Assembly (NCBI GenBank): GCA_003990765.1
Contig: RBNJ01000054.1
Location: 1 to 46,357, forward strand
Origin: Jimgerdemannia flammicorona
Taxonomy: Eukaryota
Reading direction: 5' to 3'
Length of the DNA stretch: 46,357 nucleotides
The translations under genes and the position numbers were made by a program. This document shows positions 15,074 through 43,169 of the stretch, piece after piece. How positions within the stretch are numbered: the first letter of the stretch is position 1; each line of letters starts with the position of its first letter. Under the pieces are notes generated by a model. It was not told where the DNA came from. It was given only the letters and a program-made list of their open reading frames with translations, and ran no database searches.

Positions 15074-15873
15074 TACGCACCGCTGCGCCGCTATGCCACT
15101 ACGCTGCTACGACCGGGGGTCTATGAAATAATAGAAAAAAGAACGGCACTCCGATCAAATGAGGTGGGTTGTCAACGGTCGACATAAAACACGAACAAAA
15201 AGGATAAGGTGAAGGGAAAGGAAAGGGATGGACGCAGCGACGGTTGGAAGTGCGCGGCGGGCATATCGCCCAACAATCGCGTGACTCGATAACACTGAGG
15301 TCATTGCGTTTCAGAAGTCCCTGCATTTCATGTGCCCACCGTCGAACTGCCCCACTCACTGAATTTCTGGTGACGTACGCTGAAACACGTACGCCAAAGC
15401 ACGACTTACACGTTCTGATGTCGGAAACCTGGTGGGCCGATTTTGACAGTAAGGTAAAAGCCAAAAAAAAAAAAAAAAAAAAAAAAGTGGTCCACCACAT
15501 CACTAATAGCTTATCAGTCTCAACTGCTACTTAAACAAATATATTGTAAAGTGTCCTTTACATAAAATACGAAGACGGGAACCGTAAATTGAAAATAAAG
15601 TGGAGCCCTCTGCATAAAGTACGAAGACGTAAACTGTAAAATGTAAATAAATGTATGTAAAATAGATTGTAACAGATGGGTTTGGCTATTCGCGTTAAAG
15701 CGAAGGAGCCGTTTATTGTACTTAACCACAAGGGATGGGTGGGAGCGATGCGCAAACAGATTAAAATGCTAAGTTACCGGTGTGGTATATGCTTAATTGC
15801 TGAGTTGGACATTACGTGCTGAAACCACTGAATCTGGCGTAGATGTGAAATTGGCGCTAAGCACAGGAAAGTT

Positions 15874-16234: not shown

Positions 16235-16265
<31 letters not shown>

Positions 16266-17940: not shown

Positions 17941-18149
17941 ATGAAACGAGCTGTATTATCGGTCATTCATTTATTTGGACAATACCCCCCGATTCACGCC
18001 TTCTCCCGCGCCAAACCCAGCTCTCATCCTCCCTTTTCATCCTGAACCAGTAACGATTGATCAGTCTTATCCTTTTCCTTTACCTTCGCACGCTAAATCT
18101 CTAACCGCCCATTGTTCACGCCCCCCCCCCCCCCCCCCCCCCCCACCCC

Positions 18150-18400
18150 TGTAGTGGCCAGCATGTCCCACCAGTAAAGGAGGAGACTAGCGCTGGCATC
18201 GGTGGGTTGGTAGAGATGAGGGCGAGTGAGTTGAGAGTGGAATTTGGAGGAAGGTTTTGATCGGTTAGGGTTGTATAGCATTTTCTTTCGTTAGTTATTT
18301 CATTTTTCATTCCCTTTGCACGGACGCATATCGTCCTAATAGGGTCTCGGTCCCATGCCACAAGGATTACCTCAAAATAGCCAACCCAAAATCCGCACCA
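18150..18400 (+). pseudogene. 3' remnant of the 7TM-receptor-like gene
   Basis: 'gcgctggcatcggtgggttggtagagatgaggg' and 'ttttcattccctttgcacggacgcatatcgtcc...ctcaaaatagccaacccaaaatcc' match the reverse complement of 6393-6610. Confidence 0.75.
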
Positions 18401-19036
18401 TAGATCTCCATTCGCGCCGAGCGGCCAAAGGGCAATGAGGGATGTTTATATTTTACTTACCAATCCCTCCCTTGTGTAAATTTCTCATATTTTCTTCCAT
18501 TCTCCCTGTTCATTTATCTTCTCGTTCGCGTTTGTATTTAACATATCGATGACTATATTATTTCACGGACCGAATACCTCATCTGTGGTACGGCCAAGAT
18601 GTGGATGATAGCGATGGATTGTGTTTTTTATCCCGAACGTTCCTGTTGACCTATGAGTTATTTCCAGTTTGAACAACAGATGGATACCAAATTGAGATGT
18701 CCACGGAAAATAAAATAAGAGCCAAAGGGAATTTCGGATCTTTGGAGCATCGTTTAGTAGTTTCTAGCCTGCATACCATGAGGAAGAGTGGGACATATGG
18801 CAGAAGGTTAGGAAGAGCTGTTTGATTTGCGGGTTTTGCATTCAATTGGAATGACATTATGATTTGTGATGGATCAATGAGATGCTATATAATAGTAATG
18901 CCATCGCACATACCATAAAAAAAAAAAAGACAAAAATTAAATTAACGCCAACCTTGAGCCATCACGCTAACAGACTCGATCGTCGTACTCACCAAATATA
19001 CAATTCATGCCACAGAATCCAAACTTGAACAATCGC

Positions 19037-19225
19037 TCATAATGCCAACAAACAGCACTGACCGACGTTCTCTCCACGGAACCTCCTACTTCCCGTGCAT
19101 CCTTTCTCCTTACTTCTCTGCTCGGGGCCCTCCTCCTCCCCCTCCTCATCCTCCTCCTGCGCCCTATTGGAAGGAGGTCCGCTGGGCGAAGAAATAGTCT
19201 CGCCATAGGCTGGGGGCGAGGGCAT
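19037..19225 (-). other. short acidic ORF 'B' (62 aa), coding status doubtful
   Basis: MPSPPAYGETISSP...EEDEEGEEEGPE. The YGETISS motif is retained in the 2070(-) and 5610(+) copies, but those frames are broken. Confidence 0.3.
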
Positions 19226-20234
19226 GGCCGAGGGAAGAGTTTTGTGTCCGCTGACTAAAATTGTTGGTTATTTTCGATCTGTAATGCCTCAAGCATTTGT
19301 GATTTTTGTAGCAATTTTGGGTCTTTATTTATAATTAGATCATACTGGAAGGCCTTAAATATCAGTCGGTTAGACTTATAGGAGTGTTAAGTCTGATCTT
19401 ATTATATCTTACCACCATATTACCCAATCGCAATGTCAGTATAGAATGTGTTAATTGGTGTTCTGACCGAAGTTTGTTCTCATATCTTTAGTTAGAATAA
19501 AAAAATGATGCTGTGTTTGTCGATATTAGCCCCAGTGTGTTGCGAAAAGGATTGGTCGGAGTGACCTGGGGTTATTGATGATGGATATTATTTGGGTCAG
19601 CTGGAGGCACTGAACTTGGTGAGTGCCGTTGCTCATTCGTTGCCTCGACTTTTCGGGATACCAGTAATTCAGTTTTACTTATGGCGCTTGTTTTTGTAAC
19701 GTTTCTTTTGTCTCCGGAATTGGAGAATGTTCCCTGGTATGGCGTTGATGCATGCATCGCAAGAAATATAATAAATATGCAGTACGAGAGAAGCCAGAAA
19801 ACTGAGGTCCCCAAAACCTAAAGCAACACAATCCGCGGAACCAGAAACAAAGAAAGCGGCTTGTGATTGAGGTCCCTCACGTGTGGTCAGTAGGACAAAA
19901 ACCAAGAAAAGTGGATAATATAACCTGATCAATTAAAATCCCGAAAGTTCAAAGTCATACGTATATACACATGCCAAAAATAAATGACTCCAATGGAGAA
20001 TCAATTGTGACTTGGAGAAAAATAATTCAAGCCTCTAGATGGTATATACGTATAGTCAGCCGCCTTTTTTTTGTGGGGGGGGAGGGGAACCTATATTCAT
20101 TCACGCACACGCATATTCGTGTGACATCAGAAATCGAACTCAACATTAGTGTGATTTTTACTGCGCCATTTTGTAAAAATCGAAAAGATAAAATAAACTC
20201 GACCAATAACCTTTAAAACGACTGAGTGGAACAA

Positions 20235-22770: not shown

Positions 22771-25700
22771 GTTTGACAGGTTGTCTTGCGACACCTCATT
22801 TAAGGAGTTTACCAGTGATAGATCTGACTTTCGGGCCCAGACTAACTTCTAGAAAACGTTAGTATTTAGAGACTTGGAACCCACATTCCATGTTTGGTCC
22901 CCTTCAATACAACATAAGCAATTGTCAGTTACACTAACTAAATGCTGAACTATACTGGAAACACATAGTACTCTTATTAATAAAACATCTCCCATTCCTC
23001 TCTATCACAGTGAAGATTTATTAGACTTATAAATATAGTGTAACCTGCTGGCTCAATAGAGGCAAATTACAAGGTAGAGCAGCTATGCAAATTGGCTTGA
23101 GCTACTAGTTACTTTGTCAAAAAGTAACAAAATGTTCAATAGTTTGTCTCAGAAACTTTTCAAAATTATTACAAATAGGTAGAGTTCATTCTTAAACTTT
23201 TGGCAGAAATCTTCTGGCTTAATCTGATAAGCAGACTAAATCAATATTTTTCTCTGGTGAAGTTCTTCACTTGAACTTAGCAGCAAATATTTTTTATATC
23301 AAAAAGTGAACCAGAGTTAAATTGGATATTAAAGATCACAATCTCCTTAATAGTAACTTTAGAGCTAATATTTCTCCTAAGTGTTGTAATTCTTTTTAGA
23401 TCAAGTCTCTCTTAGCTAAAATATCTCTCAAAGTATATTAGACAGACTTGTCTTATGTTTTTAACTCTGATTTTGGACTGAGGTTTATTCACTTAAATTT
23501 CTAGAATATTTTATTTAAGTATAATTACTATCTGGTTACTATCTGGATAATTATATATTATAGTATATTATAAGGCTAATTTAGAGAAGGTGTGATTTCT
23601 CATTTCTTTAAAAAATAAGTATTCTCTAGGAAACAGATATTCTTTCAAAGAACAGTGTGTTCCAATTGAGTATATCTGATTATTTATATATATAAATTAG
23701 TAGTAAATATAAATAACACTATATATAACTATACTAAGTATTTATTATATATTATTTAGCTATACTGTAGTATTGACTTATTATCATCTTCTACTATTCT
23801 AATATTTATAGATATATATCTTCTATATCTATACTTATACTATCATTCTTTTCTATAGATATATTACTCTATTCTAGGAGCTCTTCTTCTTTCTTAGAGA
23901 ATAAAACTTCAATATAACTGATAATACTTAGTATATAGTCAGATTCACTCTCTGTATATTGTTTAGAGAGAACTGAGCTTATATATATCAGAGCTATAAT
24001 ATTATACTTATAGATTATATAAAGTCTGTCTGTAGTAATAGAATTTTTTTTTTTTTTTTAACAAACTAGTAGTATTTCTGATATAGATTTGTTCTGGGGC
24101 TTAAAGATCTTATAGTTGTTCACTAATAGTATAATAAGTCTACAGTTAATAAATCTGTAGTAGCTATTATTATAAGGTAAGGTTTTCTTAATATATTTAG
24201 ATCTATTAGAGATAGTTCCTATTAACTTTATAGAACTGAGATAGGGGAACTAATAGAGCCTAGAAGGAGCTGAAAACAAGAATCTAGAGATACTAGCCAA
24301 TTTTCTGGATCATGGTATAAATGGGTAATATATTTTGAGATAATTAATATATATATACTGGATTTCTCAAAATATAACTATCTATACTTCTTAATAGATA
24401 CTAATTACTCTAAAATTATATACAAGATAAGTTCTTCTCATTTAGGTTTTATTTTAATTACAAAATTGATATTGACTCTAAACAAGAACTTGATCTTTAA
24501 TTTTGATTTTCTAATTTCTAATTTTAGATTATAGTACTTTTTTCATTTTTTTTTATATTTTAATTATCTGGGCTCAGATCTGATTTCACAATTATTCAGT
24601 CTTATTCAGGAATTCTTTAAGATTTCCTTAATCGGCAGTCCTGGTTTTCTTAGCAAATATTATTTTTAACAGCTTCTATTTAGTTATAGAATTCTGTAAA
24701 GAGATTCATACTACTGAAGTATCTGGTAACCTATAGTTAGTTAAGAAAGTCATCAATTTGAAGTAGAGAGTAGATTCTTTTTCTGTTACTAAGTTGAGAT
24801 TTCTATATTCTATATAAAGTGTCCATTCTTCTTTATTTAATATAATAAGTATAGAGCTGTCTTACAGACTAGTTAAGACCTAATGACTTTATTATTAAAG
24901 AGTTCTTGAATATATTCTTTCTTAAATTCTTTTAGATGATAGAGTATTCTATATTGTTTCTATTAGATGGTTGATATATTTTCTGTATATATACTATAGT
25001 AGTATGATAAATTATATAACAGATTACTATAGTCTATAGTAAAGATATCTCAGTATTTATAAATGAGTTCCTCAAATTGAAATTATTATATAGTGTCAAT
25101 TATTCTCTAATATTGATAGAAGGCTTTATCTTCTCTAAGATCACAGAGTATTCTTTCATTTTTTTCTGTAATTTTCTGTCATTTTCAGATAAGTTCAACT
25201 CATAGACTTCTCTATATATTTAATTAAAATAAAGTACTAGATATTCTACAATGATTTCTTTTAGCAAAATGATATTGTTCCTTGTTCTAGCTTTCATTCA
25301 TTGCTCAAGATTGTACTGAGTTCATCTTATTAGAAAATATATATTCTTCTTTATTAAGATTCTAGAGGTCCTTATTTGGTTTAAAGAAAAGATTTCAGAA
25401 ATCTAATGGTATAATACTTTCAAAGATGCTCTGTTCTCCTAGTTTCAGAATAAGATTTCTATATAGTTTAACTTACTGACAATAGACTTATTAGAGTACA
25501 TTCTTCTTAAGGTAGTTAATATAAAAGAGTATACTTCTTTTCTTTCTGAACTTCCAAATCCTTTATTTTATATTATATCTTAGATTAGCTTAGAGTCTTT
25601 CTATAGATAGGGTATATTAAATTTCAGATAGATTGCTTAGATAATTTTTTTCTTCATAAATTTGAATTTAATTAGAGCTGTTATTCTTTAAGATAAACTT

Positions 25701-25790
25701 AATTACTTTAGTATATTCTGAGTCTATAGCTCTTCCTTCAGTTGTTAATTCTTATTTTATAGGTCTAGATCTTAAAGTTAGCTGGATATA

Positions 25791-26091
25791 GTACTCACAA
25801 CAAATCAAAGGTCCAATTTGATTCAATTTGAAGCCTGATTCAAACCCTCTTTTTGAAATATAATAACTCAATGAATACACATCCAAATTCAATGACTCTT
25901 TACTTGTTAGATTCTTCTTATATAGGGAAATATAACAGGCTAAATATCATTAAATTTGGAGATGTATCTATTGAGTTATTATATTTCAAAAATAGGATTC
26001 AAATTGGACCCTCAATTTAATTCAAATTTGATTTTATTTGAATGACCCTCAATTCAATTCAATTCAAATTGATTTGATTCATTTGGGAGTA
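25791..26091. mobile_element. 300-bp foldback/MITE inserted in the old gypsy dUTPase
   Basis: Termini are 'gtactcacaa...' and '...ttgggagta'. Internal arms 'tttttgaaatataataactcaat' (25850) and 'attgagttattatatttcaaaaa' (25970) pair perfectly. Flanks are ttagctggatata (25778-25790) and ttagttggatgta (26092-26104). Confidence 0.8.
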
Positions 26092-26254
26092 TTAGTTGGA
26101 TGTATATTTCTTCTGAGATTTGTATAATATATAAGTTCTATGCTTATAAGCCTTATACTTCCTAGGTTTAGACCTTTTTATTAGAGATTCTAGCTTCAGC
26201 CTCATCAGCCCAACTCACAATCTCATACCCTCATCCCCTCTCATCTTCATCATC

Positions 26255-26767
26255 ATGAGGCTTTCCAATGCCCTCGTCCTCTTCAACCTTCTGATGATAC
26301 TCACCACTGTTGTTATGTCCATCCCGATCCCTATCCACCACAGTCACAAGGATGGAGCTGCTCTCACACGTAGAGGAGATCCTGCATCTGCCATTCATAA
26401 AGGTGTTGAGAAGAGAGGGAAGAAGTCTCCTCTGTCAAAGGATTGTGATTGTGATGATGATTGTGACTGTGACCATGACTGCGACCATGATTGTGATGAT
26501 GATTGCCACTATGATTGCCACCATGATTGCGACGATGATTGCCACCATGATTGCTACTATGATTGTGATGATGATTGCCACCATGATTGTGATGATGACT
26601 GTGATGACAATTGCCACCACAATTGCCACCACAATTGCGATAACGATTGTGATGATGATTGTAATGACGATTGTGACAATGATTGTGATGATGATTGCAA
26701 TGACAATTGCAATGACAATTACAATGACAATTGCAATGACAATTGCGATGATGATTGTGACCATTGA
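26255..26767 (+). CDS. secreted Cys/Asp/His/Asn-rich repeat protein (retrocopy; possibly already pseudogenising)
   Basis: Hydrophobic signal-like N-terminus, dibasic RR and KR sites, then 27 Cys mostly spaced C-x3-C (CDDD/CHHD/CNDN) on a 12-nt DNA repeat. Confidence 0.75.
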   Translation: MRLSNALVLFNLLMILTTVVMSIPIPIHHSHKDGAALTRRGDPASAIHKGVEKRGKKSPLSKDCDCDDDCDCDHDCDHDCDDDCHYDCHHDCDDDCHHDCYYDCDDDCHHDCDDDCDDNCHHNCHHNCDNDCDDDCNDDCDNDCDDDCNDNCNDNYNDNCNDNCDDDCDH

Positions 26768-26957
26768 TCTTACCCAGCAAACAGTTGTCATGGGTGTGAA
26801 GGTCGATGTTGTGGTATGTTGATGAGACTTTAAAGGGTTTAGTTAATGCAATTTTTCATTGCGACATGTATATTGTATCAATAATGACATTGTACCTACG
26901 AGGTTTTCTTTTTTCTTTTCGAGAGGCAAAAAGCCACTCGTGTTTATAAATTTTGGC

Positions 26958-26963
26958 AATAAA
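26958..26963 (+). terminator. polyadenylation signal AATAAA of the retrocopied mRNA
   Basis: Lies 13 nt upstream of the A31 tail. Confidence 0.8.
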
Positions 26964-26974
26964 TGAAATGAAAG

Positions 26975-27009
<35 letters not shown>

Positions 27010-27389
27010 GAGATTCTAGCTTATATATTTCTTATAGACTTTTGCTGAGAAATGGCTTCTAGATATAATAAGATATTCTGTACTATATCTTTGCTGAGTG
27101 TGAGTTATCCTTTGGCAGAGACATCTGTAGTTATAAGTTATAAGTTTAGATATTGAGATGAGACCATCTTTCTTATCTAGCAAGATCTTAGAGATAGTTG
27201 ATATCTCTTCTTTCAGTAGAGTCAAGGGTATCTATAAAGTTGGTGATATATTCTACCCATTCTTAGTAAGTAATAATTCTGATGAGAACTCAAATATTAT
27301 CTTCTGGATTATATATCTTGAAAGTTCTCCTTATACTACTTCTTTTAAATTTTTACTCTGATATCTTCTTTCTTAAGTATATGTATAGC

Positions 27390-28652
27390 TTAGCTAGATG
27401 ATGTGAACAATCAGCCAGATGATGTGAACATACAGCATAGTAACCAGCAACCATTGCTATGGAAACTGTATAATTAGCAGAAAATACCAGATAGGGTCTG
27501 TTTATCTGTATAGACTCTGTATACCTGCCATAGAGAGCAAATCTATAGTTAGCCACATAGCAACCAGATACATAGCAACCCCAATGTATAAATTACCCCA
27601 GAGACAAGAGTGAATAAACCTTAGTCCGAAATTGAGGCAAAAGACAAGTCTGCCTACCATACTTTGAGAGGAACTCTATAGCTACTACTAGGAGATTATG
27701 AGCTTATTTCCCCACTCTGGTCCACTTTCTGATATAAAGAACAAGTTTATTTTTGATTTGCTTGCCAGATAAGCCTGAAGATTTGCTGCCTAAGTTCAAG
27801 GAAGAACTTTGCACTGTTTCCAAGTTAGAAAGCCTAAAAGAAAGCCACCTTGCTCAAGCCAGTTTCTGATGCAACTTCACAGTGAATCTGTTTGTGTAAA
27901 CGAAGCCAGTCTCTAATGTAACTTTGCCAAGAGACCCTTTCCTAGCCAAGCTGCTGATTCAGGAAGAATCTGCACCATCCGAGTTATTTTCCAGAAGCCT
28001 GCCAATTCCAGAGAATCTGCATCATCTACTGTTTTCAAGTTATTTGCCATATTCCCAGTTGAAGCCACTGATTCAGAAGAATCTTTGCCATCATATTCCC
28101 AGAAGAACTTGCCAACTTAGGAAGAATCTGTGACATCTGAGTTATCTGAGTTACCTGAATTATCCACTGCCAAGTTATTCATTATTCCTAGTAAGCCTGA
28201 GAAGAATCTGCTGCCAGTACAATTTCCAGTACAGAGAATCTGCACTATCCTCTATTCCCAGTGAGCCAAATCAAGCCATCTGCCAGAAATCATATACTTT
28301 TGGAGATCATCGTGCTACACAGAGATCACCTGTCACTCAAGAAGAAGAACCACTAAATTGCTAGACTGTCACACACAGAGATCATCACACTATACAAATT
28401 GTGGCATTCCCAGTTGACCCAAGAAGGAAATCCATTTACACACAAATCGCTATTACACCCAGAGAACCATCCCAATAAGGAAATTGCCAGAATTGCTTGC
28501 AGATATCCAGCTTTTGACTATTATACCACTAAACACCAAGAACCTCAGGAAAAAACATTTTATTGCTTTTTGACAAAGTAACTGGAGGCTCAAGCCAAAC
28601 TACATCAATCCCCAACCTTGTAATTTGCCTCCATTGAGCCAGGCACATTACA
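27390..28652 (+). repeat. 5' LTR (first ~35 bp missing relative to the 3' LTR)
   Basis: Colinear with 36266-37581 and ends ...CATTACA. Contains internal 'gaagaatctg...' subrepeats. Confidence 0.93.
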
Positions 28653-28654
28653 TT

Positions 28655-28671
28655 TGGGGGCTCAACTAGGA
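28655..28671 (+). promoter_or_regulatory. primer-binding site, tRNA-Pro type
   Basis: TGGGGGCTCAACTAGGA two bases after the LTR. It resembles the known tRNA-Pro PBS TGGGGGCTCGTCCGGGA, differing mostly by CpG-type transitions. Confidence 0.75.
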
Positions 28672-28685
28672 AGATTTCAAAATCA

Positions 28686-30400
28686 ATGTAACTTTTCAGC
28701 TCACAAGAACCCACAGTCAAACTGGATATATTTGATATAACACCAACCTCTGCTACTACAGAAGAACCAGTTATCACCAGCATCTGGACAGGAAGAGAAG
28801 TAATTACTTCAAGATTTGCCAATTACCCAGCATCAGAAGGATCCCAATCAGAACCAGAAGGCAGTACAGTCTGAAATCCCCAACCAGATCAACCAGACAA
28901 TACAGGCAGCCCTGCTAGAGATTTTGGAGAACTTGTACAAGAACTAGAAGACCTTATCACATGAACCTGAGACCTTACAGCTAGATGCCCCAGATTAGCC
29001 CCACCAATTTCACCAATAGAACCTTTACTACAACCCCTTGCAGAGCCAGAAGTAGCTCCCACAAGAATACCTAGACCTATTCCACTTCATCCAAGGTCTA
29101 GAACACCATCCTCAAGATACCCAAGCACTCCCATCTCTAGTGATAGCTCAGAAAGTGAATCAGAATCTGAATCTGAACCAGAACTAGAATCAGAAGGAAG
29201 TGATGATGAAATGGCCACCTCATTGCCAACCTTTACAGGATATCTAGAGGAAGACTCCAGAGAATTCCTTGATGGAATCAAAGAAATCACAGTCTTGAGA
29301 AATCTCTCAGATGAAAGAAAAATTGCCATCTATAAAGCTCAGCTCAGAGAACCAGCCAGAGGAATTTTTCATTGAACAGCAAATGACCGAGATTCAAAAC
29401 TAGCAAGACAGATCCAAGCAGCAATGTCTGATGAGCTAGAATATGAGGCCATGGTCCACTGGCTTATCGAAAAGTATGCAGGAAATGAAACCCACTACAA
29501 GGCTCAAGAATCTATCATAGAAATGAAGATGAATTTCAGAGAATCACCCAGAGCCTTCTTTACAAGAATCCAGAAAAGAATGCATGCTGCCAGGTTCAAT
29601 GCCATCAACCAGGATATCATTGGTCCAATGACCTTCATGAATGGAATTCCCCCAAACATTGCCCAGCATGTCTGTACCCTAGACATCAGAAGGTCCAAAG
29701 AGCAAGTAGATGTAGCCCAAGAATTCTTTGATGTCAGACAAGGAACTACCTGGAGTGATCATGATAGAAAAGAAGAGAAAGAAGACATCCTGGTCAAAGC
29801 CTTACAAGGACTCCTTCAAGAACAAGAAAGATTGGAAGAAAGAAGGCCAGCCAAGGAAGGAAAGAAGGACAGAAGCAAAATCCAAGACCTTAGCTCCAAG
29901 TTAGACCAATTGGTTGGACAGATTGAAAAACTCACTACATGCAAGAATTGGGGCTACCAAGACAACAGAGGATACCCACCACAGAGGAGCCAAGGTTACC
30001 TACTAAGAAATAATGGGAATTACCAGCAAGAAGAAAAAAGGTACTCCATCTGAGACAGAGCCCAAGTCCAATGCTTCCATTGTGGACAATTTGGACACTA
30101 TGCCACTGAATGTGACAACAAAAGAAGTGACCAAAGGGACTCAGAACCACCAAACCAGAGGAATGACACTTAGTACAAGAAGACCGAAGCACATCCTGTT
30201 GAAGATTTTGAGGAAGCAAGCAACAGTGAAGACTACAGTGACCTAGATTTGTACTCTACCAAGGTTACCACTTGGAAAACAGTCTACCTAGCATAGAGAA
30301 GGAAGATACCTGTGGGAAGGCCATCCAGGAATATCAGCAGAAGAATTATCCAAGAAGAGGATGAAGAACATAAAGAGGAGCAGGTAGAAACACCCCTCTG
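28686..30400 (+). pseudogene. gag: gag (capsid-like region and CCHC zinc knuckle)
   Basis: One frame from ATG 28686 (followed by TAA) through LPTFTGYLEEDSREFL (about 29223) and ORF 29424..30053 to CFHCGQFGHYATEC at 30072-30113. Confidence 0.88.
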
Positions 30401-30729
30401 AACTCACTCACCTTTTGTTCCTGAGACAAATGAATTGCCACCAGAAGATGAAGAAATGAAACAAGAAGAACAGGAACCTGCTGCTCCAAAGCCTAAAAAA
30501 AAGTATACTCCAAACACCATGCCTAGAGACATTTACAACGAAGCCTGGCAGAAGATTCAAGAAGCCAAGATAGAAGTCCCCCTCCTGCAGTTCTTGCAAC
30601 TGACACCAGCCAGAGTCTGAAACAAATTGCTGAGAACCACCAGGTCTAGCCCTGGCTGAGTCCCAATCCCACAGCAAGAACCAGCTTCCATCCCTGTCCA
30701 AGCAGCCAAAAGACATGTCAGCACCTACC

Positions 30730-31070
30730 TACATGGAGATATTGAAGGACAAAAGGCGAAAATCCTCATAGATACTGGAGCAGCTGTCTGTATCATTGCC
30801 AAACGGTTCCTAGACACCCTTCAATGGCCCATTGATGGACCATCCAACCTCAGCAACATAGTAGCAGATGGAGCCCAAACTCAACCCCTTGGAGAAGTAT
30901 GAAATATCACCATCTCTCTTGGACACATTTAGTTCTCCATCCCCAAAGCTGTTGTCACCAAAGCTGTCACCTATGACATAATTCTTGGCACCAACTGGAT
31001 GAAGGAAATGAATGCAGTTGTTGATATTGGCCAAAAAGTACTCAAGTTTGATTACTGAGGCAAGAAGTAT
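30730..31070 (+). pseudogene. aspartic protease domain of pol
   Basis: ILIDTGAAVCII (Asp at 30771) and YDIILGTNW, in the gag frame. Confidence 0.9.
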
Positions 31071-32399
31071 AGAGTTAAGGTGACCAGCCAGCTACAAGCA
31101 ATCAAAGAAGAAGAAGAAGGTCACTATTCAGAAAAAATATACCAGTAGTGAGGAATCTACCACAGAAGAAGAGGAAGAATATAAAGATGGAAATGATCCC
31201 AGACTCAATCCCCAAATTAACCTGGTGGATGACAGACTAGAAGAAAATGTGTGGGCTAAGAACACTATCCCCATCACCATTGGAGCCATTGCAGGAGAAG
31301 CCAAAGGATATCCTACCTACCTCAAAAGACACAAGTGTCCTGGGCACTCCTCCAAGATCATGAGAACAAGGAAATCACCCAGCACAGCCTGTCCAGAGTG
31401 CAGAAGAAAGAAGAAGAAATGCAGATATGTTCCAGAAACACCTGCAACTGAGGCTGCAGAAGTACAAGCAATTTGGGGTCAAGAATCATCTGAGGAAGAA
31501 GAAACTTCCAACCAAGAAGTTGCTGAGCAAGAAGTACCTGAAGAAGAAGAGGTCCCTGAACTCATTCCCTGGGATGACCCTCACTGGACACTACCTGAAG
31601 ACAATGATCCTTGGAATACAGAAGAAGGATCCAGTACAATCACTATTATTCTCAAGAAAGAAACTCACCAAGAGAAGGCTTTTTGGCTTGGAAGGTGTCC
31701 ATACCAAATGATCTTCCACTCCCCCTGAGACTACTGCTATCAGTGTCACCTGTTGGATCAATAAGAAAGACAGAGACCCCAGAGACCAGAACCCCCAACT
31801 ATACTTATATAGTCAACCACCTTTCAGGAAGTCACTACAAGGGTACAAAGTCGATTTAGAGGACAAAGCTTCTTCACCCAAACAGAAATAGACCCCTTGT
31901 CTACCCTTCCCCTGACTTATGATCAAGATGGATACCATTTTCCAAGATAGCAAGAAATCAATAACTGGGAACACTATTTCAGAGTAATAGGATATTGCAA
32001 CTATAGAAGACACCCAGACTGCCCAGACTGCAGGCATCAGAAGATCCATCTCAGCCATGATGTTGCAGTCTACACCTTGAAGAGAGGAGACAACCAAAGT
32101 CAGATCCAAAAAAGCCAGACCAAAAAACCAGGAAGAAGGACCCTCAAGATCTATGATTGAGGTAAAGACATTCTAGCTCTCATCAGACATGCAACCCACC
32201 AAGGATGGGCAGAAGATGCCACCAACTTCATAGAAGCCCTTGACCCTATAGGCAAAAGGGGAATCAACTATCTCTGAGATCTCTCTACTGGAGCCAGATG
32301 GCCACACCTTAATCTTAGAGCTTGGAGGCTCTCTGCTAGTGGAGCCTCAGCTCTAGGAGAGCCTGAACTCAGCAAGGACATTGTCTAGTATGCCCTGCT

Positions 32400-32793
32400 A
32401 CATCCCAACGCCAAACTTCTGACCAAAGCCCACCTAGAAGATGTAGGATATAATCTTCACAGTCTGGAGGATGAATCAATCAAGCCTGGAAAAATCTTCA
32501 TAATCAGAACTGGATTAGCCATACAGCCACCCCAAGGAGCTTACATCCAATTGACCTCAAGGTCTGGACTTGCCAGACAAGGAATAACTGTAGAAGGAGG
32601 AACCATCAATCCAGGATATACAGGCGAAATCAAGGTTATCCTACACAACAGCAGTGCAGAATGGCACTGAATCATTAGAGGACAGAAGATTGCCCAAGCA
32701 GTCTTCATGAAGGTCAGGACCCCACAAATATAGGAAGTATCTGAACTGACTGAAGGAATAAGGCAAGCCAAAGAATTTGGAAGCTCAGACAAG
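32400..32793 (+). pseudogene. dUTPase domain of pol
   Basis: DVGYNL, RTGLAI, QLTSRSGLA, GGTINPGYTGEIKVIL, GQKIAQ and RQAKEFGSS correspond to trimeric dUTPase motifs I-V. Confidence 0.92.
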
Positions 32794-33249
32794 AAGGAAG
32801 TACATCTCCTTCAAGTCAACCACCTCAAGAAGAATGCTCCCCAACAAGTGTACCGGCAACCAGTCAGGCTACATAAGAATCTTATCCTAGAGCCTGGAGA
32901 ACAAGCTACCTTTGAAATCTTTGCACCACCTGACCCCAGAAATCTTTTCTTCAAACCTAAGGAAGATATTCTCCACCTGGACATAGAGGGACACCCATTC
33001 CCTGACAAGATGAATCCAGTACACTCCAGAGCAACCAACCAAAGTTGGGAAACCATCATCTTGCTGAAAGGAACCATAATAGGATATCTGGTACCTTTTC
33101 TCAACCGAACTCATAGAGAAGTTTATGAACTAAACCTATTGGGAAATGGCAAAAGGTCTCAGAAAAAAGGAAAGGCCCCTCTGCGACCCAGGAGACAGTG
33201 AAGCCTTCCACCAACATTGGAGAAGAATTGTCACCTCAACAATGGCAAC

Positions 33250-34615
33250 AATTAGTAGAACTTCTCAACAAAATATCAAGATATCTTCACCACCGATTAT
33301 GGCAACCTGCCATACAATCCATCATATCACCACAGCATAAATACAGGAAACACAACACCCATCTGGCAGAAACCCTATAGAATACCCCATTACTTGAAAA
33401 CATTTGAGAAGGAGCACATTCAAGAACTCTTAGACAATGGGGGTCATCTGACCCTCTACCAGCCCCTGGGCCAGCTCTATACTTATTGCACCAAAGAAAG
33501 GAGGATGGAGACTCTGCATGGATTACAGGAAACTCAATTCAGTCACCGAAAAGGATGCATATCCTCTGCCCAGAATTGATGACCTCTTAGATCAGTTACA
33601 AGATGCCAGATACTTCAGCAGTATGGACCTCTTTGCAGGATTCCATGAGATCCCCATGGACCCAAAGGACATCCAAAAGACAGCCTTCCTTACTCTAGAA
33701 AAACTGTTTGAGTACCTCTGAATACCCTTTGGACTTTGCAATGCACCCCCCACCTTCCAGAGGATGATGAATTCAGTCTATGCCCCCTTGATCTACCACT
33801 GACTGATTGTATACATGGATGATTTCAACATCTATTTAGCAAATTTTGAAGAATACCTGCACCATCTGGAGGAATTCTTCAAGCTCACCCACAAAAACCA
33901 CTTGAGACTGAATGTAAAGAAATGCTACTTTGGGAAACAGAAACTTGAATTCCTCAGATTCATAGTCTCAAAAGAAGGAACCCATACAGAACCAAAGAAA
34001 ACTGAGAAGATCAACAATTGGCCAGTACCCAAGACTCTAAAAGAAGCATTATCATTTCTGATACTAGTATCCTACTATAGAAGGTTTATCAAGGACTTTG
34101 CCCAAATTGCTGTCCCAATCCAAATCCTTCTTAAGAAAGGAGTACCATTCAAATGGACAGAATCACAAGAAAAAGCTTTCAAAGAACTCAAGAACTGTAT
34201 AACTACAGCACCAATCCTTGTGCACCCCAATCTACAGAGGCCATTCATCTTGTATATAGATGCTTCTAAGGATGGCCTTGGAGCAGTTCTAGCCCAAGAA
34301 GGACCCAATCAATAGTACCATATGATAGCTTATACAAGCAGAGCTACCAATCAGCAGCAGATGAACTATGGTAGCACCAAACAGGAATATCTTGCAGTCA
34401 TATGGGCAGTCAACCTGTTCAAACATTACCTCATCAGAAAAAGATTCACCCTGATCACAGACCATGTAGCCCTCAAATGGTTATTTAACTGTAAGGAACC
34501 TACCAGAATCCTAGCCTGCTGGATCCTTATACTTCAGGATTACAAAATCACCATCATCCACAAAGCAGAGAAAGCTCACAACATTGTTGATGTACTTTCC
34601 CACCAGCCCCAATGA
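33250..34615 (+). pseudogene. reverse transcriptase and RNase H domains of pol
   Basis: DYRKLN, DAYPLPRIDDLLDQL, PFGLCNAPPTFQRMM, YMDD (33812-33823), FILYIDASKDGLGAVLAQ and FTLITDHVALKWL. Confidence 0.96.
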
Positions 34616-34759
34616 ATCAGAAGAAGGGTGTCCTGAGGAACTATACCCTAAAGGAAGCTCCTCAGACCATTAAGGTACAAGCAGATCTCATCTGTATAAA
34701 ACATCAGAAAACCCATTAGGGACAGACAAATACAGAAGACAAGATTCGAAAACTGTACC

Positions 34760-35679
34760 CACATAGGCCCCACCTCAGAACTCAAGTCCGAGACATTATC
34801 CAGAAATGTAATACTTACCAGAAGTACCAAGGAAGGAAGAACTATCAAGCCCCTTTACAACCGATTCCCCCATCCACTCATATCTTTCAGAGATGGGGAG
34901 TAGATGTAATTGGACTCTTACCAATTATACCAAGAAGAAACAAATATATCTTAGTATTTGTGGAATATCTGACTAAATAGCCCAAGGCTTTTCCAATGGA
35001 GATCACAGATGCCATAACTATTGTAGGCCTCCTCCATGGACTCACACTCAGATATAGACCCCCAGAAGAGCTTATCTCTGACCAAGGCACAGAATTCATC
35101 AATAACATAATTACAAATTATGCCTGAATTTACAAGATCCACCTCAAACAAACCACATCATACCACCCTCAGACCACTGGTATGACAGAAAGAATGAATC
35201 AGACAATCAAGAAAGGACTCACCCAAGTCAATTCTACCAATTGGGACCTCTGCTTACCTGAGATCCTATGGGAAATTTGGAACACCCCTGCTGCCTCAAC
35301 CAAACAAAAGCCATTTAAGATGATGTTTGCCAAGAAAATGAGAACTGCTGACCATGAAAACCTCAGAGATCTTCTCAAAAAGGCAGAACAGTTATGTAAT
35401 CAGGCCCGAGGTCAGATTGTCAAAGCTCAAGAAAGACAGAAGAAGTACTATAACCAAAGATAGAAGGATCAGAAGATCAAGATTAGAGATCAAGTACTAG
35501 TTTGGAGAAGCATGATTGAAACAAACTTTGCTGCCAAACTGGAGCCCAAATGGGAAGGACCTTATTTCATACACAACATCAGAGGAACCAGCGTCTATTT
35601 AAGAAGCATGGATGGATGAACCCTGAGAACACCAGTACACATCAATTGTCTCAAACTATATCTCCCCTCTATACTATGA
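34760..35679 (+). pseudogene. integrase with GPY/F C-terminal module
   Basis: WGVDVIGLLP, LISDQGTEF, TSYHPQTTGMTERMNQTIK and KLEPKWEGPYFI. The first half of the HHCC finger appears deleted. No chromodomain seen. Confidence 0.92.
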
Positions 35680-36191
35680 GCTAAAGGATTGATCAACTCC
35701 TCCAGACACTGGTCCTCAGCTCCTTCTAAGCCCTACCGGTTCCCCTACTCCAATTCAGCCAAGCTAATGGAAACCCCCTTCAGAGGATTCAAGCTTACCA
35801 AGAAAATCTTACCTTGGCCAGGTGCCTACTACAAGTCCACCAACTGTAGGCCTATTATGCAATTGGTGAATAATTATAGAACCTTCTAGCCCCAGAACAG
35901 ACCTATATCAGGAACACCACAGTTCTGATCAGGAGAGATACAACTGCTGCAGACAGATTATACACCATTTATAAATGAAATGTCACAGCTCTGATACAGG
36001 CACAGTTCTCCCTGAATGACATTCAAGGAATAAACCCTGTTACCTATCTGAGTATCATCAATTCTGTTGAGATCCTATTCTCTGAAGAAGAAGAAGAACC
36101 CATAGAATGGAGTGACCCTAGTACAGACAATGAAGATGATGGAACCAGTATAGATGCAGAAGCAGCCTATGCCTATTGAGATGATGACTAA
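35676..36191 (+). pseudogene. additional 3' ORF (about 171 codons, acidic C-terminus) between integrase and 3' LTR
   Basis: Single frame from ATG 35676 to TAA 36191 with several internal stops. Homologous sequence is at 17434-17730(-) and 23780-24313(-). Confidence 0.7.
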
Positions 36192-36230
36192 AGAACAGTC
36201 TGGGACAGACTATCCTTCAGTGGGGGCTGA

Positions 36231-37581
36231 TGTGACAAACCAAGATGTACTACCCAAATTATACCTTAGCTAGATGACATGAACAATCAGCCAGATGATG
36301 TGAACACACAGCATAGTAACCAGCAACCATTGCTACAGAAACTGTATAATTAGCAGAACATACCAGATAGGGTCTGTTTACCTGTACAGACTCTGTACAC
36401 CATACAGACTCTGTACACTATACAGGTCCTATACATCATACAGACTCTGTACACCTGCCATAGATAGCAAATCTATAGTTAGCCACATAGCAACCAGATA
36501 GCAACCCCAATGTATAAATTACCCCAGAGACAAGAGTGAATAAACCTCAGTCCGAAATTGAAGCAAAAGACAAGTCTGCCTACCACACTTCGAGAGGAAC
36601 TCTACAGTCACTGCTAGGAGATTGTGAGCTTATTTCCACTCCAGTCCACTTTCTGATACAAAGAATGAGTCCATTTTTGGTTCACTTGCCAGATAAGTCT
36701 GAAGATTTGCCGCCTAAGTTCAAGGAAGAACTTCACTACTGTTTCTAAGTTAGAAAGCCTAAAAGAAAGCTACCTTGCTCAAGCCAGTTTCTGATGCAAC
36801 TTCACAGTGAATCTGTTCATGCAAACGAAGCCAGTCTCTAACGTAACTTTGCCAAGAGACCTTTTCCCAGCCAAGCTGCCAATTCAGGAAGAATCTGCAC
36901 CATCTGAGTTATTTCCCAGAAGCTCACCGATTCCAGAGAATCTGCATCATCCGCTGTTTTCAAGTTATCTGCCATATTCCCAGTTGAAGCTGCCAATTCA
37001 GAAGAATATGTGCCATCGTATTCCCAGAAGAACCCGCCAACTTTGGAAGAATCCACAACATCTGAGTTATCCAAGTTACCCGAATTATCTGCCACCAAGT
37101 TATTTGTTGTTCCTAGTAAGCCCAAGAAGAATCTGCTGTCAGTACAATCCCCAGTATAGAGAATCCACACCATCCTCTATTCCCAGTGAGCCAAATCGAG
37201 CCATCCGCCAGAAATCGCATACTTTTGGAGATTGTCGCACTATACAGAGATCACCTGTCACCCAAGAAGGAGAACCGCTAAATTGCTAGACTGTCACACA
37301 CAGAGATCATCATGCTACACAAATTGTAGTATTCCCAGTTAACCCAAGAAGGAAACCCATTCACACACAAATCGCCGCTACACCCAGAGAACCATCCCAA
37401 TAAGGAAATCGCCAGAATTGCTCGCAGATATCCAGCTTTTGACTATTATACCACTAAACACCAAGGACCTCAGGAATCTTAGAACATTTTGTTGCTTTTT
37501 GACAAATTAACTGGGGGCTCAAGCCAAACTACATCAACCCCCAATCTTGTAATTTGCCTGCATTGAGCAAGGCATGTTACA
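36231..37581 (+). repeat. 3' LTR (TG...CA)
   Basis: Begins TGTGACA after the PPT-like 'agtgggggctga' and ends TGTTACA. Contains an expanded 'atacagactctgtacac' repeat at about 36383-36455. Confidence 0.95.
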
Positions 37582-38100: not shown

Positions 38101-38356
38101 ATATTTGGATATTGAAATTAGTAATATAATCAAGAGAGATATAGTCATATATAAATAAGCTATATAAGAAATAAATTATCTAGATATAAAATAATAAGAA
38201 TTTCAATACTTCTGCTTAATAAAATAATATATATATATAAGAATATAAGAATATAATAATGTAAAAATATAATAAACCCAGTAATAACTATAGAATAACT
38301 ATAAATATACTAAAAAGATACTATCTATATATACTTAAAATATAAGTAACAATAAG

Positions 38357-40145
38357 TTAACTACTTTAAGAAAAATACACCTCAACAAATATAATAATAA
38401 TTGGTCAAACTCCTCAAGAACCTCATCCTGGAACCAGGAGAGCAGACTGTCTTTAAAATCTTTGTACTAATAGACCCCAGAAACCTGTTTTTAAAACTAA
38501 ATAAATATCTCAAGAACCTTAATTTAGAAGGATATAAGATAAATTCTGTTCTTCTTAAGCAACCAACTAAAGCTAAGACATCTCATTCTATCAAAGAGAA
38601 TTATCATAGACTATCTGATACTCTATCTCAATCAGATATATAGAGAAGTCTATAAATTAAATCTATCTAGAAATTACAAGAGGTCTTAGAAGAAAGAAAG
38701 GCCTCTCTGTAACCCAAGAGAAAGTAAAGTCTTCTATCAATATTGAGAAGAATTAACACCTCAGTAATAGTAGTAACTAGTAGAACTTCTTTATAAATAT
38801 TGGAACATCTTTACATTAGAGTAGAGAAATCTGCCATATAACTCATCATCTACTTTAGTATAAATACAGAAAATATAACTCTTATCTGATAGAAATCTTA
38901 TAGAATACACTACTATCTAAGATGAAATATATTCAGAAACTCTTAGATAATAGAGTTATCCAAATCTCTAAAAGTCTCTGGATTAGCTCTATACTTATTA
39001 TATCTAAGAAAAGAGAATAGAGACTTTGTATAGACTACTGAAAGTTCAACTTAGTAATAGAAAAAGATATCTACCCCTTCTCTAGAATTAATTACCTCCT
39101 TGACCAGCTATAAGATATCAGATATTTCAGTAGTATGGATTTTTGGCAGAATTCTACAAGATCTCCATAGTCTGTAAAGATATTTAGAAAACAGCCTTTA
39201 TTATTTTAGAAATACTATTTGAATACCTCTGAATGCCCTTGGGACCCTGCAATATACTCTTAATCTTTTAGTAGATAATGAACTCAGTCTATACTTTATT
39301 ACTCTACTACTGTCTGATTATCTACATAGAAGATACTAGTATTTATTCAGTCAATTTCAAGGAATATTTACAATACTTAGAAGAGTTCTTTCAATCACTT
39401 CAAAGAACCACCTGAGACTCAATGCTAAGAAGTACTACTTTAGAAAACCAAAACTCAAATTCCCTAAATTTATAGTTTCTATAGATAGAATCTATATAGA
39501 TCCCAGAAGACTAAAAAGATGAATAACTGACCAATACTCAAGACTATGATAAAAACACTATTATTTCTAATACAAATAATCTACAATAAAAGATTTTATT
39601 AAGAATTTTACTCAAATTGATATACTAATCAGAACTCTTTTTAAGAAAGAAGAAAGGAACTATAAGAACTAGTCTTCAAATAACTTAAATGCCTCATTAC
39701 TACAGCAGAAGTCCTTATCTCATAATCTACAGAAGCCATTTATCTTGTACCTAGATACTTCTAAAGATAGCCTCAGAGCAGTCTTAATTCAGAAGGACTA
39801 ACTAGTAGTACTATATAATATGTAGCTTATATATACTAAACTACCAATTAGTAGCAAGTTAACTCTGATAGTACCAAATTAGAATATGTTACATTATATA
39901 GGTACTCACTCTCATTAAGCACTATCTTATAAGAAAAATATTAACTTTGATAACTATTTATACTGCTCTCAAATAGCTATTTAACTATAAAAACCCTTTT
40001 GAAATTCTGGCTCACTAGATCCTTATTCTATAGGAATACAAAATCACTATAATTTACAAAGCAGAGAAAGCTTATAATAATACTGATATCTTTCCTACTA
40101 ACTTTAATAAACCAGAAGTAGAGTATGCCAAGGAACTGTACTCTA
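38357..40145 (+). mobile_element. degenerate internal fragment (RT-RNase H) of the same gypsy family
   Basis: KNLILEPGEQTVFKIF matches 32848 KNLILEPGEQATFEIF, and the region is colinear with 32817-34650. Confidence 0.9.
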
Positions 40146-40149
40146 AATA

Positions 40150-43100
40150 ATATCTTTCTCAGCTATTGCTTGAGTTATACTAAAACTCTACCTATACATA
40201 ATTTTCGTAGTTTTTTAGAGAAATAAACTTAGATTATATCATCAATTTGAATTTCTTAAGAGTATGCTTAGTAGAGTAACCCTAGTATATTTGACTGACA
40301 GTATGTAGAGAGGATTCAATGCTCAGGTGTAGGCCTTTGGAGCTCTTATTCAGATAGATTTAGAGTCTACAGAGGTGAGAGGCCTGGTGCTAGAGGACAG
40401 GAAGCTGGGAGAATGAGCTTTACTAATAAGATCAAGACTGGGGATTAGTCAGTGAGACTGAATAGATGACTACAGAGAGAGAAGGAGAAGGCACAGGCTG
40501 CAAGATCTGGAGAAGATGCTCTGAACAACTAATAGGACTAGTGGAGTAGCAGCTAGAGAGGGGGGTGAGACTGCTGATGGGAAGAAACTGCTAATTTGAA
40601 AAAATCCAGATATAATAGCTGATAGATTGACTGAGCTAAAGAGTGACATAGAAAGGATACTTGGCTGAGAGTATAATGGGTATGATAGCAGAACGTTATT
40701 TAAGAAATTAGTATTGGAATTCCAGATCACACTGTACTTCCAGAGCTTGAGAGTTATGGCAAAATTAGTTCTAGGGCTACTAGCCCAAGAGATAAAAGGG
40801 TTGGCCTCAGTGACGTTTTTAAAGAGACTAGAGAGAATTGAGATGAGCTTTGAGAAAGAGAATTTGATGCTAAAAGTACTAGAGAAGAGAGTGATACATA
40901 GTTGAGAGAGTAATGATTCCTATAGCAAGATATCTGAGCTAAGACCCTTGGATAATTGATGCTGCCAAGGAATATGGAGATATAGTAGATATCACTTTCA
41001 GAGTTTGAGAGGGTACAGCATTCTGTACAGATGATGTGAATGTCTATATGAGGCTGGTAGAAAGGTGAATATGGAGAAAGAGAGAGACTAGCTAGTAGTA
41101 CTAAAGTAGGACCCAGTAGAGTATAAGGTATTGAGAGTGAAAGGGATGCTGGAGGAGAAGGAGGATTTGCTAGAGGTGTTGGATGATCTGGCTAGAGCAG
41201 TAGAGAAGAAGCAGTTAGTATTGAAGGAGTTTGATGCTAGAACTGTGGTAGAGATTGTTAATAATAAGAGAGTATATCTATATAAGAGAGGGCTAAAGAG
41301 AGACAGTGACAGAAGGATTTGTTGGCAGGCTTAGAGAGTGGTCCAAAAGTGGTGAAGAATACTGAGATTACTGGTTCAAGGATCAGTACCTAGTTTGGGA
41401 AGATGAAGACAATACAGAGGAGAGACCTAGAGAGAGATATAGCTTAAGAGTAAAGTATAGTAGCAAAGGATATAGTGGTGACAGATAAGGCTCACATCTA
41501 GTATGAGAATCTAACAATTAGGAGGGGGAATAAGCTGCAAGATATATTAGAGAAGAACTGAGATAAGTTAGTAAAAGCAAGTGCTAAAGAGGGTTGGAGA
41601 ATGGAGAGACAGGAGTTAGACTTAAAGAATGAGAAGATTAGCAGAGAGTAGTAGCTATAGAAGACACTTACAAATATTGCTGCTGATGAGTTGGGAGAGA
41701 GGGGGGTCACTTCTAAGGTATCAGTAAGATATATTATAGAGCTGTCTTGAGAGGAGAGGAGATAGTATACAAGTTGTAAGATGAGTTGATAGTAGCTCTA
41801 TAAAAGTTAGAAGAGTGAGATTGATGAGAATAGGAAAATAGTACTATTGGAAATTACAAATACATATATAGCTTATCTGTGGAGTCCAAAAAAAGGGGTG
41901 GTAAAATAGCAGATAGTGTTTAAGAAGTATTAATTATCTGTAGAGATATAGAACAGAATGGATTATTTGGAGATATTGGTGGCTCTAGATACTCTGTAAG
42001 GAGAGGTGATCAAACTTGATGCTGAGAGTAACTTGAATATGGCTAGTGATATAGTGAGTATGGAATTGTAGAGTAGGAGAATCTTTTATATATATTTATT
42101 TAATATAAATAATACAATTAGGATCTTTTCTCTAAATATCAATGGGTTATGGGAGGTAGTAAGGTATAGGAACATTTTCTCCTAACTAAAAGGGCTGGAT
42201 ACTGATCTATTTTTGTTACAGGATATGAGAAGTAATAAGAACTCTGATATATAGGACTGGAGGTAGGAATGGGGAGAGGTGGTAGTATGGTGAGACAGGG
42301 TAGGTATTCTAGTTTATAGAGAGAAGAGAGATATTGGGGATATTGGAAATTGGGGGGATAGGAAGTGTGGGGAATATGGAGGAAACAAGGTTAGAGCTTA
42401 GTAGTAGTCAGATCATATTACTGCCTGGTGGAGAGAAGAGCCTATTTGGAGTGGATAAATAAACTGAAAGACTTTGGCAAGCTGGTGGAGTCTGGGGTTG
42501 ACTGTTTGGATAGTAATTTTAATATAATCTAAAATGGCAGAATAGACAGAAAGAATGGTAGGAGGGGGTTGTCAGGGAGAAGCAGAGGTCTGGAAAGTTG
42601 GAAAGAGATTAAAAGACTTAATTCTCTAGTGAATATTGGCTGATAGAGGTGGAGAGATTACCAGATATACACACAATGTATAGATGAGCTTGGCTCTAGA
42701 ATTAACTGAGTTCTGACTACTGAGTGCTGGTAGAGTGATGTCTGAGAATTATTAGAGGCTGAATAGTATCTATGGTCTGATCACTGTGGTCTTCTGAAAT
42801 GTAAAAAGTTTAGAGGAAGTAGTGAGGGATCTGGATATTGGTACTTTAACTCTTTCTTGTTGGATGAGCTCTCTTTGTGAGAAGTCTGGATAGTGGATAT
42901 TAGATCCAGGATTTGTATTTAGAGAGAGGTAGGTCTCACTCTTTGGAATAGATTGTGGAGACTAAAGTCTGATGTACAACATTTCTAAAGAGAGGCAGAG
43001 AGACTATAGAGTACCAGAGGTAGAGTTATGTATATACGGTGGGTCTTATGTAGGTTGGAAAGACTGTTGAAGGAATGGACTGGCCTACTTGTTAGAGAAT

Positions 43101-43157
43101 ATAGAGATGATGGATTGAAAGGTTCAGCATAATCAGAAGAAGGAAGAGAAAAAAAAA
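40150..43157 (+). mobile_element. degenerate L1/Tx1-like LINE: ORF1 and AP-endonuclease region, ending in an A-rich tract
   Basis: ORF1 homology to 47..307, endonuclease motifs IRIFSLNINGL (about 42117), DLFLLQD and SDH (42776-42784), and an A run at 43149-43157. Boundaries approximate. Confidence 0.8.
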
Positions 43158-43169
43158 TAAGTTAGTATA

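Follow-up and report, generated by a model that had tools for sequence, protein, structure and literature searches.

The window analysed here, the whole 46,357-bp stretch of Jimgerdemannia flammicorona contig RBNJ01000054.1, contains an insert bounded by two copies of a perfect direct repeat, TAGAGATTCTAGCTT, and laid out from leader to tail as listed in Table 1. The original prediction had described a 15-bp target-site duplication (TSD) around an 811-bp insert made of a 58-nt C-rich leader, an open reading frame (ORF), a 3' UTR, an AATAAA signal and a tail of 31 adenines (A31), and this description holds base for base.

Table 1. Coordinates of the insert, its parts and the neighbouring transposable elements, numbered from the first base of the window.
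Feature	Position	Strand	Description
Gypsy relic hosting the insertion	23290–27383 (outer limits approximate)	−	Old, internally deleted and hypermutated; collinear matches to intact Gypsy
Left TSD copy, TAGAGATTCTAGCTT	26182–26196	+	Exact duplicate of 27008–27022
Insert	26197–27007	+	811 bp between the TSD copies
5' leader (5' UTR)	26197–26254	+	58 nt, C-rich and G-poor (C27 T15 A14 G2)
Intact ORF	26255–26767	+	170 codons plus TGA; signal-peptide-like N-terminus, RR and KR dibasic sites, about 26 (D/H/N/Y)3-C repeats
Predicted signal peptide	26255–26320	+	Residues 1–22, MRLSNALVLFNLLMILTTVVMS, then IPIP; from hydropathy and −3/−1 residues
12-nt (four-codon) repeat array	26441–26764	+	Asp/His/Asn/Cys-rich body of the ORF; period 12, 23.6 copies, 78% matches
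3' UTR	26768–26976	+	209 nt of unique sequence; single copy in the window
AATAAA polyadenylation signal	26958–26963	+	13 nt upstream of the tail
Poly(A) tail	26977–27007	+	Pure, uninterrupted A31; directly abutted by the right TSD copy
Right TSD copy, TAGAGATTCTAGCTT	27008–27022	+	15-mer aligned with the equivalent part of the intact Gypsy
Better preserved Ty3/Gypsy with dUTPase	27384–37581	+	LTRs at 27384–28652 and 36260–37581

A pattern search of the 46,357-bp window placed the 15-mer at these two positions only, and no third match appeared when up to two mismatches were allowed. By chance 0.28 matches would be expected, and two or more matches arose in one of 100 shuffles. The repeat cannot be extended at either end, since the preceding base is T at one copy and A at the other and the next base is C and A, respectively. 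As a measure of background, the next 15-mer is found in identical form 50–9000 bp upstream for 373 of 37,342 positions of the window (1.0%); these upstream copies come mostly from LTRs and tandem arrays.

The A/T runs of the window (at least 10 or at least 12 nt) were then compared for upstream copies of the sequence that follows them, using exact matches and also matches with up to two mismatches in 14 nt. A plausible TSD followed only one of the ten runs, the A31 tail of the insert. The other exact upstream match, at the run 2866–2893, was an A-tract matching itself. The remaining poly(A) and poly(T) tracts of the window were rejected as traces of target-primed reverse transcription because they have no TSDs, whether exact or with up to two mismatches. 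The A-tracts at 2820–2935 belong to a long direct repeat, inside which an A-run has expanded. No second copy of the insert is present in the 46,357-bp window.

The insert interrupts a degenerate Gypsy element

Both flanks of the insert can be traced to a single older element. On the left, positions 25200–25564 are 67% identical to 33128–32770 of the better preserved Gypsy, in reversed orientation; on the right, positions 27152–27332 match 32313–32133 of the same element, again reversed, with 70% identity and collinear with the left match. Further minus-oriented fragments of the host relic were recovered at 24568–25544 when 12 pieces of the intact Gypsy were translated and used as tblastn queries, and pieces of the relic LTR lie at 23290–23566. 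A three-way alignment matched the right flank to the Gypsy reference beginning with the first base of the flank, which indicates that the 15-mer is itself Gypsy-derived. The left flank also includes about 390 bp (approximately 25790–26181) without a counterpart in the Gypsy reference, and much of this stretch is explained by a palindromic insert of about 240 bp (25802–26041) inside the host relic. The collinearity of the two flanks on a single relic and the alignment of the TSD to Gypsy show that the insert interrupts sequence that was there before and represents a true insertion. The 811 bp thus break up one continuous older element, of which the empty site is inferable.

The neighbouring element to the right contains protease, dUTPase, reverse transcriptase, RNase H and integrase domains (Pfam), and the repeat segments of its LTRs share 88–95% identity. 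We rejected this element as the insertion target because 361 bp lie between the TSD and the LTR with which it begins. A third Gypsy copy, a plus-oriented relic at 38356–40117, was found in the same tblastn search with the 12 pieces of intact Gypsy. With three Gypsy copies around the insertion site, the earlier description of this region as a nest of transposable elements is well founded.

The repeat array is genuine coding sequence

The ORF starts at an ATG with an A at position −3 (context CATCATCATGAGG), and most of its body is the 12-nt repeat array. A repeat of this period leaves five of the six reading frames open, so the length of the ORF alone is weak evidence for coding. The codon structure of the array is more informative. 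All 108 of its codons are of the form NAY or TGY, with position 2 restricted to A or G and position 3 to T or C, and none of the 108 has a purine at position 3. Across 26 aligned units, bases that depart from the consensus fall at 33 of 104 first positions, three of 104 second positions and 35 of 104 third positions, and this variation among codon positions is highly significant (chi-square, p = 2e-8). The variants at position 3 are all synonymous T/C changes; a purine at the same position would alter the residue or create a stop. Cysteine occupies every fourth residue of the array with one exception, a tyrosine, and neither frameshifts nor stops occur. The array is therefore genuine coding sequence, as its codon-position pattern demonstrates, and this pattern is the one expected of a (D/H/N/Y)3-C protein repeat under purifying selection rather than of a neutral minisatellite.

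The predicted protein looks secreted and has no detectable homologue

The N-terminus of the ORF product has the features of a signal peptide. The Kyte-Doolittle mean over 11 residues peaks at 2.56 (residues 7–17) and falls below zero from residue 22. According to the −3/−1 rule of von Heijne, signal-peptide cleavage sites carry small residues at these positions, and the putative cleavage site here, VMS/IP, has V and S at −3 and −1, respectively. The first 62 residues of the protein are unique sequence, and the RR and KR sites lie downstream of the signal-peptide-like stretch; dibasic sites of this kind can be subject to Kex2-type processing. The product is thus predicted to be secreted, and the original description of a small secreted protein agrees with the hydrophobic N-terminal stretch followed by the putative VMS/IP site. 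The predicted mature protein of 148 residues would contain 52 D+E, 18 H and 27 C, a composition suggestive of a strongly acidic secreted protein that may bind metal or be rich in disulfides.

Searches for relatives of the ORF product covered protein collections and metagenome contigs. No Pfam family matched the product, and a word-indexed protein search yielded 739 word-sharing candidates of 93–298 aa, none of them at E ≤ 0.01. Against 1.84 billion representatives, phmmer returned 157 matches at E ≤ 0.001. In the best 150 of these 157, the best stretch lay in the repeat part or started at or beyond residue 25, and the 15 match sequences that we inspected were CxxxC-periodic proteins with unrelated N-termini. 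We rejected the phmmer matches as homologues, the similarity being compositional or that of a periodic Cys repeat. The exact ORF product is absent from a collection of 15 billion proteins, and the ESM Atlas held no usable neighbour of it. In metagenome contigs, six peptide patterns taken from the first 64 residues matched 570 times, with none of the matches confirmed, and one exact 20-mer of the 3' UTR gave no match; both results are weak evidence of absence. The predicted protein has, in these protein and metagenome searches, no detectable homologue, and as a product without detectable relatives it may merit study in itself.

The insert is younger than its surroundings

The host relic shows the marks of extensive decay, with a CpG observed/expected ratio (o/e) of 0.0 and a GC content of 25–29%. 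Relative to the intact Gypsy, the left flank has 122 G>A or C>T differences vs 28 in the reverse direction over 588 aligned bases, and the right flank has 60 vs 16 over 325 aligned bases. The insert, in contrast, retains 15 CpGs and a CpG o/e of 0.45, vs 0.0 in both flanks. Along 23–46 kb of the window, the 1-kb interval that holds the insert has a CpG o/e of 0.42, and 21 of the other 22 intervals have values of 0.0–0.16, the exception being 37–38 kb at 0.37.

The retention of CpGs inside a CpG-free zone of 23 kb indicates that the insert is young and has not shared the decay of its neighbours, with the caveat that the left 23 kb of the window have a normal CpG o/e (0.42–1.27) despite long repeats. 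It likewise argues that the insert did not originate from a CpG-depleted repeat of the surrounding kind, and a genic source fits the CpG content of the insert better than an old resident repeat family. A further bound comes from the ends of the insert: no change is present in 61 positions (30 bases of TSD and 31 of tail), which places divergence since insertion below about 5%. On these observations, the insert is relatively young. It can also serve as an internal time marker, for either the destruction of CpGs preceded its arrival or this process spares low-copy sequence.

Probable origin by target-primed reverse transcription

The junctions of the insert carry the most information on how it arose. 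A poly(A) tail abutting a 15-bp staggered-cut duplication, together with a complete 5' end and no LTR junctions, points to a LINE enzyme that acted in trans by target priming. The duplication falls within the roughly 7–20 bp, and the 13 nt from AATAAA to the tail within the 10–30 nt, expected of an mRNA copied by this route. On balance, we consider it likely that a protein-coding mRNA of the host gave rise to the insert by LINE-type target-primed reverse transcription, which would make the insert a young processed retrocopy. According to this model, a Pol II transcript for a putatively secreted, dibasic-site-bearing Asp/His/Asn/Cys repeat protein would have been polyadenylated 13 nt after AATAAA. 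The endonuclease/reverse transcriptase of a poly(A)-type LINE, working in trans, would then have nicked the bottom strand of the relic at 5'-CTCTA/ATAAAAAGG-3'; with the nick as primer, the poly(A) tail would have been reverse-transcribed and the RNA copied to its 5' end. A second nick, in the top strand and 15 bp away, would have given rise to the 15-bp duplication. The anatomy of the insert leads us to infer a cellular mRNA as its source, along with a parent gene and a LINE as its maker. The copy brought no promoter along, and the transposon DNA in which it resides is free of CpGs; most likely, therefore, it represents a silent processed pseudogene that owes its intact ORF solely to its youth.

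The nick site on the top strand reads CCTTTTTAT/TAGAGATTC (TTTTTAT/TAGAGA). It is A/T-rich with a T-rich upstream side, but A's are missing from the start of the TSD. The consensus of the mammalian L1 endonuclease on the top strand is TT/AAAA, which the site does not match. As the fungal enzyme may have a specificity of its own, the departure from the L1 consensus weakens the designation L1-like but not the designation target-primed.

We also scanned the stop-to-stop ORFs of the window against Pfam, covering all 156 ORFs of at least 75 aa and 223 of the 304 ORFs of 45–74 aa, namely those outside 26.2–37.6 kb. No LINE reverse transcriptase or endonuclease domain was recognisable in the ORFs scanned, and all of the domains found came from the Gypsy element. 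The sole trace outside Gypsy was a sub-threshold RVT_1 match at 44545–44778 (E = 0.008; 16.4 bits vs a cut-off of 29.6). These results bear on the original prediction of a LINE-type retrocopy of an mRNA in two ways: the target-primed anatomy of a polyadenylated Pol II-type transcript and the genuine coding ORF uphold it, whereas the LINE itself is not recognisable in the window. The narrower attribution to an L1/Tx1-like element found no support in the window, and a nick other than TT/AAAA lowers it. The further suggestion that such LINEs may be amplifying small secreted protein genes found no support, there being one copy of the insert in the window. Nor does the lack of introns in the ORF count in favour of a retrocopy, as it could be judged only against a parent gene.

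Alternative origins of the insert

The main competitor of a single mRNA retrocopy is that the insert belongs to a family of non-autonomous, LINE-dependent poly(A) retroposons that carries, or was derived from, a repeat-protein gene and moves repeatedly. Its layout of head, minisatellite-like 12-nt core, tail, poly(A) and 15-bp TSD resembles that of SVA-like retroposons. The array, however, is codon-structured with a selection-like constraint, and it forms part of a complete mRNA-like frame with ATG, predicted signal peptide, stop and AATAAA. Moreover, the insert has kept its CpGs, unlike every Gypsy copy at 23–46 kb, it is single in the window, and the metagenome scans with one exact 20-mer and six peptide patterns were negative, a weak point in the same direction. 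We accordingly regard a retroposon family as unlikely, though it is the alternative to which we give the most weight.

Considerably less probable is a functional young retrogene, in which a fortuitous upstream promoter would drive the copy to supply a secreted (D/H/N)3-C repeat protein. An ORF that is fully intact with start, predicted signal peptide and stop, and a poly(A) signal that has been kept, would accord with function, but intactness is expected from youth alone. Against function also stand the position of the copy in CpG-free hypermutated Gypsy debris, the mere 58 nt that it carried upstream of the ATG, and the public collection, in which no gene call has the ORF product. Similarly slight is the chance of a broader scenario, in which an active LINE of the poly(A) type acts in trans to copy host mRNAs and the insert is a young, usable retrogene for an unseen class of secreted, possibly metal-binding (D/H/N)3-C proteins. 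Were the retrogene reading true, retroposition would be one route by which the fungus multiplies genes for secreted proteins. An assembly or library artefact, such as a cDNA-like or chimeric read incorporated in the assembly, is highly improbable: the perfect 15-bp duplication of host Gypsy sequence lies exactly at both ends and the flanks are collinear, features that a chimeric join would not yield.

Other classes of mobile element were compared with the insert and set aside. It is not a SINE, as ARAGORN detected no tRNA genes in the window and the insert has no Pol III-type head. In Rfam, none of 17 matches came near its gathering score (best 35 bits vs 110), and nearly all were miRNA-like noise on the repeat array. 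An SVA-like or VNTR-cored non-coding retroposon does not fit a core that is codon-structured and an insert with one copy in the window. Retrocopies mediated by an LTR retrotransposon are expected between LTR-element sequences of the mediating element and with a TSD of 4–6 bp. The insert has poly(A) and a 15-bp TSD at its ends, and the nearest LTR is 361 bp away, which led us to reject this route. A Helitron or DNA transposon was rejected by eye, since the ends (CAGCC... and ...A31) are without terminal inverted repeats.

Relation to known retrocopies

The mechanism that we favour, LINE-type retroposition of an mRNA, is textbook and well known in mammals, while such events are rarely documented in fungi. 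Esnault, Maestre and Heidmann reportedly described the L1-mediated processed pseudogenes of mammals in 2000. The insert resembles these pseudogenes in being a full-length mRNA copy with AATAAA, poly(A), a 15-bp TSD, no promoter and an A/T-rich staggered break, going by the features given in the excerpted source (PMC5470649). It differs from them in its host, an early-diverging fungus, and in a nick at TTTTTAT/TAGAGA instead of TT/AAAA. The L1-type route with poly(A) and TSD also operates outside mammals, retrocopies mediated by L1-like elements having been described in dicot plants (PMC4838847, in excerpt). That work was a genome-wide study with parents identified, to judge from the same excerpts, whereas the present case is one copy known from the insert alone (PMC4838847).

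Among fungi, the closest precedent in kind is the Ty1-mediated processed pseudogenes of Saccharomyces cerevisiae reported by Derr et al. 1991 (cited in the excerpts of PMC5470649 and PMC7175516). There too, as far as these excerpts go, a fungal cellular mRNA was copied into the genome by the reverse transcriptase of a retrotransposon (PMC5470649, PMC7175516). The Ty1 route is described in the excerpted text as mediated by an LTR element, with cytoplasmic cDNA formed by template switching and flanked by Ty/LTR sequence (PMC5470649). The insert studied here, in contrast, is without flanking LTR junctions and has a pure A31 and a 15-bp TSD. Poly(A)-type target-primed retrotransposition is represented in fungi by Zorro3, a LINE of the L1 clade in Candida albicans, for which possible trans-complementation of ORF2 was discussed (PMC1965478, in excerpt). 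The excerpts of that paper report no retrocopies of cellular mRNAs (PMC1965478).

Retroposition is stated to be hardly studied in fungi, and the fungal cases cited in the excerpted source are the Ty1-mediated events and a retroposition-mediated duplication of the 5S rRNA gene in Aspergillus (PMC5470649). The text of a review on retrocopies contains no word starting with 'fung' (PMC5408686). In the open-access literature we found no report of LINE-type mRNA retrocopies in fungi, which is not proof of their absence. If the parent gene is found, the insert would provide a clean, datable case of a protein-coding mRNA retroposed by the LINE-type route in an early-diverging fungus.

Sequence composition across the window

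The composition of the window shifts abruptly at approximately 23 kb (23000-46357 vs 1-23000). CpG observed/expected ratios range from 0.42 to 1.27 to the left of this boundary, whereas they fall to 0.0-0.16 in 21 of the 23 windows of 1 kb to its right; the two exceptions are the 1-kb window with the insert, i.e., the polyadenylated mRNA copy (0.42), and the window at 37-38 kb (0.37). The two relics of Gypsy elements (23.3-27.4 kb and 38.3-40.1 kb) have a GC content of 25-29% and both show a marked surplus of G>A/C>T changes. Together, the loss of CpG and this surplus to the right of 23 kb resemble RIP-like or methylation-driven decay.

A strong and sustained GC skew (+0.27 to +0.56) was also observed at 40000-46357, where the DNA is CpG-free and the plus strand is C-poor; a cytosine loss so large and strand-asymmetric is unusual. 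The sole match in this region was a sub-threshold RVT_1 hit on the plus strand (44545-44778; E = 0.008).

Repeats and Gypsy elements

Coordinates of the repeats and of the features of the better preserved Gypsy element are listed below.

Features of the Gypsy elements and repeats in the window
Feature	Position	Location or orientation	Details
Palindrome, ~240 bp	25802-26041	Within Gypsy relic	Arms 25821-25913 and 25929-26021, 74% complementary
164-codon open frames	27870-28361 and 36795-37286	One per LTR of better preserved Gypsy	
dUTPase domain of Gypsy	32389-32667		Pfam PF00692, E = 7e-15
Direct repeat pair	1722-2935 and 18135-20100	Same orientation	1.1-1.9 kb, 77-89% identical

The palindrome lies ~140 bp to the left of the retrocopy insertion site and is not present in the intact Gypsy copy of the window; a MITE-like or foldback element may have inserted here. 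In the intact element, the dUTPase domain is placed between the protease and RT, and this part of the element is the counterpart of the retrocopy target in the older relic. The 164-codon frames share 80% protein identity (tblastn E = 3e-77), with no Pfam family found for either copy.

In the left part of the window, the copies of the direct repeat are separated by ~17.1 kb, in which no Pfam domains were found among scanned ORFs of at least 45 aa; the pair could represent either a segmental repeat or a large LTR-type element that is non-autonomous. An A24 run (15463-15486) faces a T27 run (16239-16265); the 752 bp that separate them are unique in sequence and rich in CpG, and no target-site duplication was detected for either run. 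Within copy 1 of the direct repeat, a short A-run has grown to A43+A28+A41 (2820-2935).
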